Positions 4,379 to 6,278 of a DNA stretch of 14,554 bases are shown here, one piece after another. Both the position numbers and the translations under genes were made by a program. The notes beneath the pieces are model-generated. The model saw only the letters and a program-made list of their open reading frames with translations, was not told the origin of the DNA and ran no database searches. The first letter of the stretch is position 1. The number at the start of each line of letters is the position of its first letter. The DNA comes from a virus (lineage: Duplodnaviria; Heunggongvirae; Uroviricota; Caudoviricetes). The stretch lies in the IMG/VR virus record IMGVR_UViG_2579778702_000011. One strand, 5' to 3'.

Positions 4379-4569
4379 GGACGCACCTCCGCCGTAGTTA
4401 CGTATTTAACCGGGCTACCTTTCATTGAGATGGTTTCACACATCTCTGCCGCTTTCAGTTCCGCTGTTTTTCTGGATTTATAGCGACGGTGCCAGACAGA
4501 TACATCCGTGCGAACTGATACATCGTTTCTGTATTCCGTAGTGGAGATGATGATTTCGTAACTAATCAT
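4375..4569 (-). CDS. hypothetical small phage protein (64 aa)
   Basis: ORF track. AAGGAGG SD upstream of ATG 4569. ATGA overlaps at both ends. Confidence 0.6.
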   Translation of the reverse strand: MISYEIIISTTEYRNDVSVRTDVSVWHRRYKSRKTAELKAAEMCETISMKGSPVKYVTTAEVRP

Positions 4570-5117
4570 GGGCGAACCTCCTTGTCAGAACCATTCAGCC
4601 TGGAATCAACAAGTGCAGCGCCAAAAACAGCATCACCAACACGGTCGTACAGTTTGCTAGCCAGCGGAGATTCAACGGCCTTAAGCATTGGATAAAGCTG
4701 GCTTGTCCAGATTTGATGGATTTCACGCAAATGCAGGTATACGCCTCTGGCGTTTCGTGCGACAGCTGACATATCAACCGCGTCAGCACCAGATAAATTC
4801 TTCTCCATCTGGTTAAAGGCGTTGATGTATGCCTCTTTGAACTGGGCAGCACGTTTACCAGTGAAGCCCATGGCAAGAAACGCAAAACCGTCGCGGGTGA
4901 TTTGGTAACAAGGGAGTTTGCGGCCTGATGCGTCGGTGTATTCACTTAACACAAAATTGTGTTCAGTAAATTCAGCGGAACATTCGAGGTTTCTAATTCT
5001 ATCTAAAACCCGCTCATGCCGTTTAGTAAAGTAATTAGCTACTGCAAGAGATGTGGTGACAACGCGACCATTGATAATCGTGATTTCAGGGCGAGATTGG
5101 GTTGGGAGAGTAGTCAT
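4566..5117 (-). CDS. Rha-family phage regulatory protein (start uncertain; the open frame extends to 5420)
   Basis: Rha-domain signature 'VTTSLAVANYFTKRHERVLDRIRNLE' about 20 aa after Met at 5117 (MTTLPTQSRPEITIINGR...). The track ATG at 5420 and the internal Mets have no SD; the 5117 ATG has AGGGG about 10 nt upstream. The upstream 101 codons look compositionally non-protein-like. Confidence 0.65.
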   Translation of the reverse strand: MTTLPTQSRPEITIINGRVVTTSLAVANYFTKRHERVLDRIRNLECSAEFTEHNFVLSEYTDASGRKLPCYQITRDGFAFLAMGFTGKRAAQFKEAYINAFNQMEKNLSGADAVDMSAVARNARGVYLHLREIHQIWTSQLYPMLKAVESPLASKLYDRVGDAVFGAALVDSRLNGSDKEVRP

Positions 5118-5459
5118 GGTGACAGCCCCTATGTTGAATTCAATGAACTCACCACCAAGGCTTTCCACGACCATATAGGTGGTGAGACGTACAGGGGTGG
5201 AAATACCGGTCAACATAGAACCCGGCCCAACCGAAGTTGGCCCTGCACGCCCCACCATAATTTGGGCGTAACGATGCTCATGACACGAAAAAACCGCATG
5301 AGCGCGGTTGTGCTCTATATTGAATTTCGGGTTTCCACGCCCGGCACCCGCTTTATAAGGTGCAGAGACAGTGTAACGTCCCGAAATTGCAGAATCAATA
5401 TTTGGTCTTGAAATGATCATATAGCTGCTGATATCTTTAGAACTGTTCTTGGATGTTTC

Positions 5460-5485
5460 GGAGCCGTTTTATGCGAAACAGCTCC
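5460..5485 (+). other. stem-loop (GGAGC-cGTTT-tatgcg-AAACa-GCTCC) immediately upstream of the terminator
   Basis: Complementary arms read directly from the sequence. Confidence 0.4.
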
Positions 5486-5504
5486 CCGTTATTGATGTTG
5501 AGTG

Positions 5505-5529
5505 AGCCGGGTTACTCCCGGCTTTTTTT
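5505..5529 (+). terminator. rho-independent terminator, plus-strand orientation (AGCCGGG-ttact-CCCGGCT followed by TTTTTTT)
   Basis: 7-bp GC-rich stem, 5-nt loop and a 7-T run on the + strand only. Its last base coincides with the stop codon (5531..5529) of the minus-strand gene 5529..6278. Confidence 0.65.
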
Positions 5530-6278
5530 CATCGCTGCCAACCAATAACCTGAAATAACCCCATTTTCGGGTGATACCAGCGAGTCCCTCGCGGTTCTGC
5601 TTCCTCCATAACCCGATAAAAAGCAGCCATAAACGGTTCCACAGCAACAATTGCGCGACGTGACAACAATCCGTCCGGCGTCATGAACTCATGGGTGTCT
5701 GTAGGAATCTGATAGGCGTTCACCAGATTGCGGCATTTATCATCTGACAAACCGGTTTTTGCTTTCAGTTGGCGATATCCGGCATAGCCCTCACGAATAG
5801 TGCCCTTTTTAATTTGCTCGACTGTTTCAGCAACGTGGCTGACTTTTTCTTCCACCTGAGTGATCCGTTTCTGTTGGCGAACGGCTTCAAGAGCCATCGC
5901 GGCAACCATTTCGATTTCGCTCATTGGCTTACGGATCTGTTCTTCCAGTTCGCGCCAGCGATCTACCAGGCGAGCAGTGAATTCAGGGCAGAGCTGTGCG
6001 ACGACAATGATGCTGTCGCGCTTACCTTGTTCTCCTTCAAACAGGTAATGCTCATATTGAACTTTAAAACCTAAGTTATTGATTTTCTCGGAAACAGCCA
6101 TTGGCGGTTTCCGGATGATGTTTTTAGCAACCAGGCGTTCGATACTACGTTTAACATCTGAGTGCTGACTACCCACCAGCTCTGCGATCTCAACGCTGGT
6201 CATGGATGCTTTGTCGTTAAAAATTGCGGTGTTCACTGCCATCTCCTTACGGATAAATTCTTTTAAGATTCCGCACAT
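5529..6278 (-). CDS. Rha-domain protein with ~150 aa C-terminal extension (antirepressor-like regulatory protein); true start is either 6278 or 6242
   Basis: Rha-like signature 'ASMTSVEIAELVGSQHSDVKRSIERLV' near the N-terminus. Met13 (ATG 6242) is directly abutted by AAGGAG with zero spacing, and Met1 (6278) has no SD, so the start is unresolved. Confidence 0.7.
   Translation of the reverse strand: MCGILKEFIRKEMAVNTAIFNDKASMTSVEIAELVGSQHSDVKRSIERLVAKNIIRKPPMAVSEKINNLGFKVQYEHYLFEGEQGKRDSIIVVAQLCPEFTARLVDRWRELEEQIRKPMSEIEMVAAMALEAVRQQKRITQVEEKVSHVAETVEQIKKGTIREGYAGYRQLKAKTGLSDDKCRNLVNAYQIPTDTHEFMTPDGLLSRRAIVAVEPFMAAFYRVMEEAEPRGTRWYHPKMGLFQVIGWQR

Follow-up and report, generated by a model that had tools for sequence, protein, structure and literature searches.

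An isrK/C4-type RNA cassette upstream of a Rha-family gene, with a Roi-like neighbour, between cro and the replication genes of a lambdoid prophage

What is the role of two neighbouring genes, both annotated as Rha, that lie between the cro-like gene (6720-6929) and the O-like gene (3231-4157) of a lambdoid E. coli prophage? The window analysed here, a 14,554-nucleotide stretch of caudoviral DNA, has two minus-strand ORFs at this place, gene 1 (5529-6278) and gene 2 (4566-5420), as the first-pass annotation had reported. It regarded them as two Rha-domain genes in the position of cII, which might substitute for cII, modulate the lysogeny decision or act as antirepressors. The Rha genes themselves are ordinary and had been annotated before: RefSeq already names both as Rha family proteins, and the RNA genes described below (isrK and C4) are without annotation in the existing RefSeq record. 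The N-terminal Rha motifs quoted earlier are present in both proteins, and both exceed the gathering cut-off of Pfam Phage_pRha (PF09669, 29.9 bits); in gene 2, however, the domain is N-terminal only if translation starts at ATG 5117. The locus consists of two different things, a Roi-like gene 1 and an RNA-gated gene 2 module, and represents an ordinary RNA-controlled antirepressor-like module rather than a cII substitute. We put at roughly 0.6 the probability that gene 2 is a self-contained RNA-gated module of the P1 immI, P4 immunity or Gifsy-1 isrK type, next to a Roi-like gene 1. Small-RNA switches of this type are known already, and the locus adds another instance. A gene duplication as the source of both Rha genes was rejected, as BLASTP reveals no similarity between the two proteins (E = 27).

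Gene 1 is a Roi-like early protein. Its N-terminus is a DNA-binding winged helix of the Rha/Roi type, its middle part is helical, and its C-terminus is uncharacterised. The gene starts at 6236 and not at 6278 of the longest ORF (249 aa): the ATG at 6236 is preceded by AAGGAG, PGAP places the start at the same position, and the resulting 235 aa (5529-6236, minus strand) is the length of nearly all of the best 120 of 4749 gene 1 homologues. The match to Phage_pRha is marginal (33.9 bits, E 4.7e-8, residues 26-113 of the 249-aa ORF; 34.2 bits for the 235-aa protein) and NCBIfam TIGR02681 does not match gene 1; phrog_63, labelled 'anti-repressor Ant', matches with an E of 3e-48. By tblastn, the genes annotated roi in CUS-3, HK140, H-19B, PA28 and other phages are 56-70% identical to the N-terminus of gene 1, over a range from residues 1-98 up to residues 1-140. 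The C-terminal extension measures ~136 aa and matches no Pfam family. Its 135 C-terminal residues are in common with a 'putative transcriptional regulator' of APSE, and DNA-level matches showed that the last ~35 codons are common to genes annotated ORF6N or Ant.

Compared to Roi of HK022 and the Stx phages, gene 1 shares the N-terminal domain but differs in the C-terminal 135 aa and in its location, as roi sits in the nin region next to ninF in CUS-3, HK140 and PA28, whereas gene 1 follows cro. Gene 1 presumably belongs to the transcript of the early rightward operon, since it follows the cro-like gene in the same orientation. Both gene 1 and gene 2 resemble Rha of phi80 and P22 in matching the Pfam Rha model; Rha of phi80 is a late-operon gene.

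The main feature of gene 2, which the first-pass annotation had missed, is an RNA switch in its 5' third. Two Rfam RNAs lie within codons 1-101 (5118-5420, minus strand), the part annotated as an 'Ash' N-terminal domain. The first is an isrK/seqA-like leader small RNA (5287-5363, minus strand), to which RF01394 matches over its full length with 61.6 bits, against a gathering score of 50 bits. Upstream of it, a predicted cassette promoter (5370-5398, minus strand) was read from the sequence, with TTGATT at 5398-5393, a spacer of 17 nt and TACACT at 5375-5370; its predicted transcription start, 5363, coincides with base 1 of the isrK model. This promoter block is kept in nearly all relatives, with mosaic sequence upstream of ~5403, and a simple promoter scan of the minus strand does not list it. 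The leader contains box b1 (GTGGAAA, 5338-5332) and box a1 (TCAATATAGAGC, 5323-5312), followed by an intrinsic terminator on the minus strand (5309-5292 plus a T-run, terminator scan). The second is a C4/CI-type antisense RNA (5175-5262, minus strand), matched by RF01695 in full length at 82.4 bits (E 2.7e-15; gathering score 45 bits). Its minimum-free-energy fold is the Rfam fold, in which the specificity loop a' and the segment b' occupy 5221-5210 and 5204-5197, respectively, and an invariant CCACC at the 3' end of the long stem is the sole sequence hint of RNase P release. The downstream target boxes (5126-5168, minus strand) are b2 (GTGGAAA, 5168-5162) and a2 (TCAACATAGGG, 5137-5127). Box a2 overlaps the Shine-Dalgarno sequence AGGGG (5130-5126), eight nucleotides before ATG 5117, and a predicted local hairpin hides both this Shine-Dalgarno sequence and the AUG.

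Box pairing and stem covariation, computed across 39 relatives, revealed 99-100% pairing in the C4 stems, where compensatory changes occur. The pairing of a1 with a' and of b1 with b' holds in 95% of cells, with 14 of the 19 pairs changed on both sides, compared to at most 44% in slid controls. Likewise, the helix between a' and a2 is 97.7% paired (7/11 pairs changed on both sides). Cognate pairing is seen in every specificity type, and that of b' with b2 covers 6-7 of 7-8 positions throughout. The pairs of the upstream hairpin of isrK are mostly invariant, which leaves weak covariation support there. No further good target of a' was found in the 14,554-nt window. In all 14 relatives scanned, ST64B included, the isrK and C4 pair sits directly upstream of the Rha gene.

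Gene 2 proper, which follows this cassette, encodes a Rha-family protein of 183 aa (MTTLPTQ..., 4566-5117, minus strand). Phage_pRha matches the 284-aa ORF with 108.5 bits (E 2.5e-31, residues 122-207) and the 183-aa protein with 109.1 bits (residues 21-106), and TIGR02681 gives 101.7-102.4 bits against a cut-off of 45.95. A strong third-codon-position bias sets in at ATG 5117, with column entropies of 0.38, 0.28 and 0.83 for codon positions 1, 2 and 3 of the Rha domain. The KilA-C/ANT affiliation considered in the first-pass annotation found no backing: Pfam ANT matches neither gene, P22_AR_C reaches a sub-threshold 15.9 bits in gene 2, and Pfam ORF6N does not match gene 2. Neither gene matches a PADLOC defence-system model. 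A sequence search of the PDB retrieved nothing for gene 2 and a chance match only for gene 1. The AlphaFold models, built from shallow alignments, are poor (mean pLDDT 61.9 and 48.7) and confident only for residues 10-85 of gene 1; these low-confidence models of gene 1 and gene 2 have no Foldseek match in the PDB with E < 0.1.

Cassettes of the isrK/C4 type control antirepressor or antirepressor-like genes in P1 (PMC8546580, PMC12197685) and Gifsy-1 (PMC4825925). C4 blocks Ant synthesis in P1/P7 (PMC8546580, PMC12197685), and IsrK activates the translation of orf45-anrP, the product AnrP inducing Gifsy-1 (PMC4825925); the published models differ in sign, C4 being the repressor in P1 and IsrK the activator in Gifsy-1. 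By analogy, the cassette promoter (5398-5370) would start transcription at ~5363, and most transcripts would end at the isrK terminator to give a 77-nt leader small RNA with boxes b1 and a1. Read-through transcripts would hold the C4-like RNA, whose a' and b' are complementary to a1/b1 and to b2/a2. In the lysogen, pairing of C4 with b2/a2, together with the local hairpin, would keep the Rha protein untranslated, and less transcription would then reach the downstream genes translationally linked to it, namely two small ORFs, the O-like gene, the helicase-loader gene and the DnaB helicase gene. An excess of leader small RNA or the loss of C4 would free Rha translation. In trans, C4 would act as a second, sequence-addressed immunity against modules with the same boxes.

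The freed Rha protein of 183 aa would most likely work as an antirepressor or a lytic-phase regulator. A putative antirepressor activity is suggested by PHROG annotation labels and by the RNA cassette context. The antirepressor idea of the first-pass annotation gains indirect support for gene 2 only, through the isrK/C4 cassette upstream. Compared with AnrP, an antirepressor studied experimentally, the gene 2 Rha protein shows no homology. Since the cI-like repressor of the window carries a Peptidase_S24 domain (Pfam), induction need not require an antirepressor. An identical cI is found alongside variants of the gene 2 protein of 79-100% identity. A search for operator words found none common to the cI-cro region and the cassette promoter, CAAAGTATC being present only at 6947, 6984 and 7730, and no LexA box was seen by eye in the gap between gene 1 and gene 2.

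The module most closely recalls three known systems. In P1/P7 immI (c4, icd, ant1/ant2), a C4-family RNA is processed out of the transcript that also carries its target (PMC12197685), as is predicted here, two C4 segments pair with upstream a1/b1 and with downstream a2/b2 over the ribosome-binding site, the cargo is of antirepressor type, and specificity variants occur, as in P1/P7 heteroimmunity (PMC12197685). In P1, RNase P frees C4 from its precursor and the RNA then works in trans, which is predicted for the present RNA as well. There are differences, however. In P1 immI, c4 and ant are separated by a small ORF, icd, whose translation is coupled to that of ant, whereas the window has no separate icd ORF and the boxes cover the cargo's own Shine-Dalgarno sequence; the cargo here is a Rha-domain protein; and the module belongs to the early right operon of a lambdoid prophage, where it precedes the replication genes. 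Moreover, far more specificity types occur here, with 40 a' loops and 15 b' words among 155 loci, and co-resident modules differ in 18/19 loci. The cargo of 87 other isrK-C4 cassettes includes Bro-N, Rha and small ORFs; in 16 of these 87, the small ORFs appear Icd-like by eye, with no Pfam match.

The Gifsy-1 isrK-orf45-anrP locus (Hershko-Shalev et al. 2016, PMC4825925) shares an isrK-family leader with its own terminator, a read-through mRNA with a C4-like RNA (STnc1160), and control of the cargo at translation. The AUG of orf45 is at +107, and the predicted transcript has one here at +106 (5258), which falls within the 5' end of C4 and, used as a start, would yield a product of ~230 aa. In contrast, AnrP, with its sequence taken from the supplement of PMC4825925, is an ORF6N protein (67.9 bits) without a Rha match, and the Gifsy-1 locus adjoins the late antiterminator gene antQ instead of lying between cro and the replication genes. 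In addition, the orf45 frame runs stop-free into the cargo in the window and in 52/52 close relatives, whereas the two are separate in three unfused relatives (L090, L142 and L145); the Gifsy-1 authors noted an orf45-cargo fusion for S. dysenteriae (PMC4825925). In P4 immunity (seqA, CI RNA, seqC), the Rfam isrK and C4 models match seqA and cI, and the cassette stands first in an operon whose later genes serve replication; P4 control is described as transcription that terminates prematurely, and the cargo, epsilon and alpha, is unrelated to Rha.

The likeness to P4 lends itself to a different reading of the pair, in which both proteins serve lytic growth as sequence-specific regulators of transcription or replication, in the manner of Roi and Rha, rather than as antirepressors, and the cassette, as in P4, mainly blocks transcription from the internal promoter into the replication genes in the lysogen. 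Both proteins have winged-helix N-termini of the Rha/Roi type, and HK022 Roi is implicated in lytic growth in a passage of PMC3430580 that cites Clerget and Boccard (1996). From gene 2 onwards, overlapping stop and start codons link one ORF to the next into the O-like, helicase-loader and DnaB genes, the stop of gene 2 itself overlapping the start of the next ORF (ATGA). This layout parallels P4 (promoter, seqA, cI, seqC, epsilon, alpha), in which CI RNA works by premature termination according to the discussion of PMC4825925. However, such cassettes elsewhere mostly carry antirepressor-like families (Bro-N, ORF6N, P1 Ant), and translational control is indicated here, because box a2 overlaps the Shine-Dalgarno sequence. 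We regard this alternative as rather unlikely in the form stated, though regulating lytic growth and acting as an antirepressor are not mutually exclusive.

A second alternative takes the annotation at face value, with a true 284-aa Ash-Rha protein translated from ATG 5420 and the Rfam matches incidental. PGAP and most gene callers indeed give products of 281-284 aa with PF10554 and PF09669, Phage_ASH (PF10554) matches residues 16-111 of the gene 2 ORF with 34.7 bits versus a cut-off of 26, and phrog_821 spans residues 5-283. The frame through the cassette is open in 52/52 relatives, compared to 0/52 for either of the other two frames, and indels in the cassette restore it; most relatives have an in-frame ATG ~100 codons upstream of the Rha start, and in tandem arrays the upstream ATG stands behind a strong Shine-Dalgarno sequence and overlaps the preceding stop codon (ATGA). 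Against these points, the column entropies of codons 1-101 (0.56, 0.60 and 0.59 for positions 1, 2 and 3) display no codon periodicity, and the variation tracks base-pairing, not protein conservation. ATG 5420 itself precedes the predicted transcription start and, in the window, lacks a Shine-Dalgarno sequence, and NCBIfam has no model for the 'Ash' part. The three unfused relatives hold ORFs of 15-54 aa that end in stops ahead of a separate Rha gene, which begins at the equivalent ATG with its own Shine-Dalgarno sequence. Furthermore, the prototype Ash ORF of P4, the obsolete 'cI protein' (historically 'cI/ash'), matches Phage_ASH and covers the CI RNA gene, a known immunity factor (PMC4825925). 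We consider a 284-aa product improbable. Judged from these sequence comparisons, the 101 'Ash' codons are a translation of the promoter and the RNA cassette and do not evolve as protein. Because of the RNAs, the co-varying pairings, the missing codon periodicity, the separate starts and the P4 ORF, the Rha protein is most likely 183 aa and RNA-gated, as in P1 c4-ant, P4 cI and Gifsy-1 isrK-anrP.

The same consideration extends to more than a thousand database entries of ~280 aa named 'Rha family phage regulatory protein' with an 'Ash' domain, and to free-standing 'ash family proteins'; in these, a translated small-RNA switch probably makes up part or the whole of the product. For E. coli prophages of this kind, many Stx phages included, the module would provide a second, RNA-addressed immunity layer, and possibly an SOS-independent induction in addition, a behaviour that Gifsy-1 shows. 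Such a layer could bear on the induction of toxin phages and on the interference between co-resident prophages.

The open frame and the frame-restoring indels suggest that ribosomes cross the cassette under some conditions. One tentative extension of the RNA-gated module, possible though still doubtful, is that the cassette is a dual-mode gate with its frame held open on purpose. In the lysogen, transcripts from its own promoter would begin downstream of the far-upstream ATG and be RNA-gated. During lytic growth, on long pR transcripts, ribosomes from the preceding gene would pass in frame through isrK and C4, handed over in tandem arrays by the ATGA stop/start overlap behind the strong Shine-Dalgarno sequence, and, by opening up both the terminator and the folded C4, would translate the cargo independently of C4. 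The a and b boxes may further be a combinatorial address code, of which the 40 x 15 variants seen would prevent cross-talk among the cassettes of co-resident E. coli prophages. Neither the dual-mode gate nor the address code was found in the literature consulted.

That the gene pair replaces cII and sets the lysogeny frequency by activating the establishment of repressor and integrase is very improbable: the pair does lie between cro and the O-like gene, and no window ORF tested matches Phage_CII, but neither gene bears a resemblance to cII, gene 1 resembles Roi instead, the gene 2 cassette is known from repressor-opposing systems, an antirepressor would speak against a cII role because its push towards lytic growth is the opposite of that of cII, lambdoid Stx phages without cII, cIII or N have already been described (PMC8044961), and the early HTH gene at 7808-8224, preceded by a pL-like promoter, is no less plausible as a regulator. 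The earlier remark that no cII-like protein is evident holds, as neither Pfam nor PHROGs identified a lambda-type cII or a 186 CII-type activator among the ORFs searched (those up to 12790, except at 670-927). Apart from weak hits, PHROGs gave only the label 'CII-like regulator' for the HTH_3 gene at 7808-8224, and BLASTP gives no alignment between this gene and lambda CII.

The slot between cro and O is nevertheless shared with lambda cII/oop, despite the lack of CII similarity, and the gap between the two Rha genes adds a further likeness. A GC-rich hairpin lies directly 3' of the gene 1 stop codon (5504-5531, + strand, terminator scan). With its T-run on the + strand, the hairpin (5504-5524) qualifies as an intrinsic terminator there and not on the minus strand, hence in antisense orientation to both Rha genes, which contradicts the earlier view of a terminator-containing gap that separates the genes. 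As in lambda oop, a hairpin whose T-run is on the antisense strand abuts the 3' end of the slot gene, and a promoter-like site on the + strand is located ~70 nt away. The putative antisense RNA from this gap (+ strand, ~88 nt, 5444-5531) is a consensus-level prediction and, unlike lambda oop, would overlap gene 1 by a few bases only. A second hairpin with a 10-bp stem (5460-5485, strand unassigned) emerged from minimum-free-energy folds of both strands, with z-scores of -3.2 and -4.4. The block 5400-5531 is 99-100% identical across 43 loci, and being almost invariant, it offers no variation from which covariation of the gap hairpins could be read. In phiP27, a hairpin of another sequence occupies the same place, with its T-rich tail likewise on the antisense strand.

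The two minus-strand genes that the first-pass annotation read as Rha genes in the cII slot, gene 1 (5529-6236, 235 aa, Roi-like) and gene 2 (4566-5420 as annotated), are both real and both exceed the Pfam Rha cut-off of 29.9 bits. Gene 1 barely passes it with 33.9 bits, gene 2 matches strongly with 108.5 bits, and both already carry the RefSeq name of Rha family proteins. Duplication was rejected as their origin, for mutual BLASTP finds nothing (E = 27). In the full ORF of gene 2 the Rha signature is not N-terminal: a Pfam Phage_ASH match takes up residues 16-111, and behind it the Rha domain occupies residues 122-207. 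The two Rha genes themselves are ordinary; the interesting content is an RNA switch of a known type hidden in the mis-modelled N-terminus of gene 2, where the earlier reading missed RNA families inside the "Ash" part.

An Rfam scan (gathering scores of 50 for isrK and 45 for C4) placed an isrK RNA (5363-5287, 61.6 bits) and a C4 antisense RNA (5262-5175, 82.4 bits, E 2.7e-15) inside the "Ash" part, both on the minus strand that encodes gene 2, and the C4 target family c4-a1b1 also matches there, below threshold (5376-5324, minus strand). The 3' end of isrK is an intrinsic terminator on the minus strand, called by the terminator scan at 5309-5292 plus a T-run. A promoter-like block at 5398-5370 (TTGATT, a 17-nt spacer and TACACT) lies 7 nt ahead of where the isrK model begins and is conserved in relatives; everything upstream of ~5403 is mosaic. 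This cassette of promoter, isrK and C4 RNA spans codons 1-101 of gene 2. The specificity segments of C4, the a' loop (5221-5210) and the b' segment (5204-5197), have boxes a1 (5323-5312) and b1 (5338-5332) in isrK and boxes a2 and b2 before the ATG at 5117, all on the minus strand; a2 (5137-5127) overlaps the Shine-Dalgarno sequence AGGGG eight nt before this ATG. In silico folding of 5363-5100 reproduces the Rfam C4 structure and predicts that the Shine-Dalgarno and AUG of 5117 are sequestered in a local hairpin formed with the b2 region. Elsewhere in the window, no other good target for a' was found.

The comparison drew on 80 viral-contig loci that encode relatives of the Rha part (78-100% identical). 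All 14 diverse loci scanned for RNAs, including ST64B and one RefSeq E. coli prophage, carry isrK and C4 directly upstream of the Rha gene, some as two tandem modules. In 39 distinct sequences aligned with each other, the C4 stems pair at 99-100% and show compensatory changes. The a'-a1 and b'-b1 pairings hold in 95% of cells, with both sides changed in 14 of 19 pairs, against at most 44% paired in control versions slid by 1-3 columns. The a'-a2 helix is 97.7% paired (both sides changed in 7/11 pairs); for b'-b2 an alignment gap blurs the column test, and direct matching finds 6-7 cognate pairs out of 7-8 in each type. A C4 core was recognised in 155 fetched loci; their a' loops fall into 40 variants and their b' words into 15, giving 53 combinations. 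Nineteen of these loci have two or three cassettes in tandem, and in 18 of the 19 the co-resident cassettes differ. In these arrays an ATG ~100 codons 5' of the cargo, behind a strong Shine-Dalgarno, overlaps the stop of the preceding gene, which prompted the idea that ribosomes arriving from upstream might override the gate on cargo translation.

Column entropy by codon position in 52 distinct relatives is 0.38/0.28/0.83 (positions 1/2/3) for the Rha domain and 0.04/0.08/0.20 for the C-terminal part. It is flat over 5420-5118 (0.56/0.60/0.59), and this stretch therefore does not evolve as coding sequence. In three distant cassettes (L090, L142 and L145), a short ORF from an AUG at transcript positions +105 to +112 stops after 54, 15 and 28 codons, respectively, and a separate Rha gene with its own Shine-Dalgarno starts at the ATG equivalent to 5117. 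In phage P4 (L207), the old "cI gene product / transcriptional repressor" ORF matches Phage_ASH with 59.7 bits exactly over a C4-family RNA, and the Rfam isrK model matches the seqA region (P4 sites 8168-8584 and 8420-8692); the discussion in PMC4825925 gives the P4 immunity factor as the CI RNA. By these signs, the Pfam Ash family seems to be, for the most part at least, the translated isrK-C4 cassette, and 183 aa is the most likely length of the window's Rha protein. The reading frame nevertheless runs open through the cassette in 52/52 relatives, with 3.6-5.4 stops in each of the other two frames, and indels restore it. An AUG at 5258, at +106 of the predicted transcript, is present in all relatives and corresponds to the orf45 AUG at +107 in Gifsy-1, whose authors remarked on an orf45-anrP fusion in S. 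dysenteriae (PMC4825925). Given the open frame, the conserved AUG and this fusion, a longer isoform of ~230 aa, or ribosomes crossing the cassette, is possible. Free-standing proteins of 220 aa in L002 (2815-3477), phiP27 (L206, 1476-2135) and ASU11 (L205, 2914-3576) carry the annotations "ash family protein", "putative antirepressor" or "transcriptional regulator". Those of L002 and phiP27 consist of the isrK-C4 cassette with a minimal Rha-like domain behind it, which at 28 bits just misses the cut-off; judging by size and position, that of ASU11 is probably built likewise.

In P1 and P7, C4 RNA pairs around the ribosome-binding site and blocks synthesis of the Ant antirepressor, and their heteroimmunity rests on C4 specificity differences (PMC8546580, PMC12197685). 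In Gifsy-1, IsrK ends at a terminator of its own; transcripts that read past it are isrK-orf45-anrP mRNAs that stay translationally silent until IsrK opens them in trans, whereupon AnrP induces the prophage (PMC4825925). Every RNA part of these systems is present in the window, here with a Rha-domain protein as cargo, from which we infer that C4 gates Rha translation. In the lysogen, C4 pairing with b2/a2 would keep the Rha protein untranslated, and the cassette RNA would add a second layer of immunity, addressed by sequence. From gene 2 onwards, stop and start codons overlap in a chain that reaches into the replication genes, so the gate may also limit transcription into these genes, by analogy with P4. 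Antirepressor activity of gene 2 should not be presumed, since AnrP is an ORF6N protein rather than a Rha protein; the S24 domain of the window's cI is a further caveat. Variants of the gene 2 Rha protein do not appear to be tied to one cI type. The cargo of 87 other cassettes includes Bro-N and Rha proteins and small ORFs that by eye look like P1 Icd, a range that fits the antirepressor-like class.

Gene 1 has no RNA cassette, and is found together with the gated Rha gene in most relatives; in ASU11 its homologue directly follows the cro-position gene. It starts at 6236 rather than 6278, with AAGGAG preceding the ATG, as also chosen by PGAP, and nearly all of the best 120 of 4749 homologues are 235 aa long. 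Over the N-terminal 98-140 residues, gene 1 shares 56-70% identity with Roi of CUS-3, HK140, H-19B and Stx phages; Roi is described in PMC3430580, citing Clerget and Boccard 1996, as a DNA-binding protein implicated in lytic growth. The C-terminal extension of ~150 aa that had been reported does exist, on gene 1, with no Pfam family found for it. An APSE "putative transcriptional regulator" has this C-terminal part too, and roughly the last 35 codons match, at the DNA level, genes annotated as ORF6N or Ant proteins. A structure model is confident only at residues 10-85 and yielded no fold match.

The 108-nt gap between the genes (5421-5528) is nearly invariant in 43 loci. The hairpin after the gene 1 stop (5504-5524), read as a terminator between the genes, has its T-run on the plus strand, antisense to both of them, and the terminator scan calls it on that strand only. 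In phiP27 a hairpin of other sequence at the same spot likewise has an antisense T-rich tail. The plus strand at 5408-5531 carries a promoter-like site (5408-5437; TTGAAA and TATCTT 18 nt apart, plus an upstream TG), two hairpins and a T-run. These consensus matches could specify an antisense sRNA of ~88 nt abutting the 3' end of gene 1, placed much as oop is in lambda; the phiP27 arrangement is analogous, with a different sequence.

As the early region of a lambdoid prophage, the window comprises, on the plus strand, integrase (13241-14554), excisionase (12949-13185) and a LexA-like cI repressor with a Peptidase_S24 domain (7041-7697), and, on the minus strand, a 69-aa gene in the cro position (6720-6929), gene 1, gene 2, two small ORFs (4154-4569), an O-like replication gene (3231-4157), a DnaC-like gene (2321-3220) and DnaB (924-2324). 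The reported absence of cII held up: no lambda-type cII, cIII or N was detected by Pfam and PHROGs among the ORFs tested, and lambdoid Stx phages without these three are already known (PMC8044961). At 7730-7776 a pL-like promoter (TTGCCA, 17 nt, TACCAT) adjoins the operator word CAAAGTATC upstream of an HTH_3 gene (7808-8224, plus strand). This gene bears the PHROG label "CII-like regulator" (E 6e-40) and has weak DicA similarity (NCBIfam), with no similarity to lambda CII.

The 74-aa ORF at 4154-4378 (minus strand, phrog_1153) lies 3' of the gated Rha gene in all relatives looked at, with 54-100% identity, is joined to its neighbours by overlapping stop and start codons, and may be part of the gated Rha module. 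A 97-aa ORF (6356-6649, plus strand, phrog_4753) is set between the cro-like gene and gene 1 in the opposite orientation, and its stop is directly followed by a hairpin resembling a terminator (6657-6679, plus strand). The ORF resembles an inserted moron, has no Pfam or PADLOC match, and was not detected in most relatives sharing the same cro and cI. The small ORF at 9360-9590 (plus strand, phrog_340) ends in a long alternating Asp/Glu run from a GAT/GAA repeat. Among 5426 complete E. coli genomes, 982 carry DNA related to 4100-7000, as do many Stx-converting phages, phiP27 and ST64B; in E. coli O111:H21 strain 15A the chromosomal copy is 100% identical. The otherwise identical prophage of that strain (L001) carries IS903B at L001 15336-16304 in the ea22-like region (window ~10435); the window lacks this element there and is thus a different, uninterrupted copy of the prophage.
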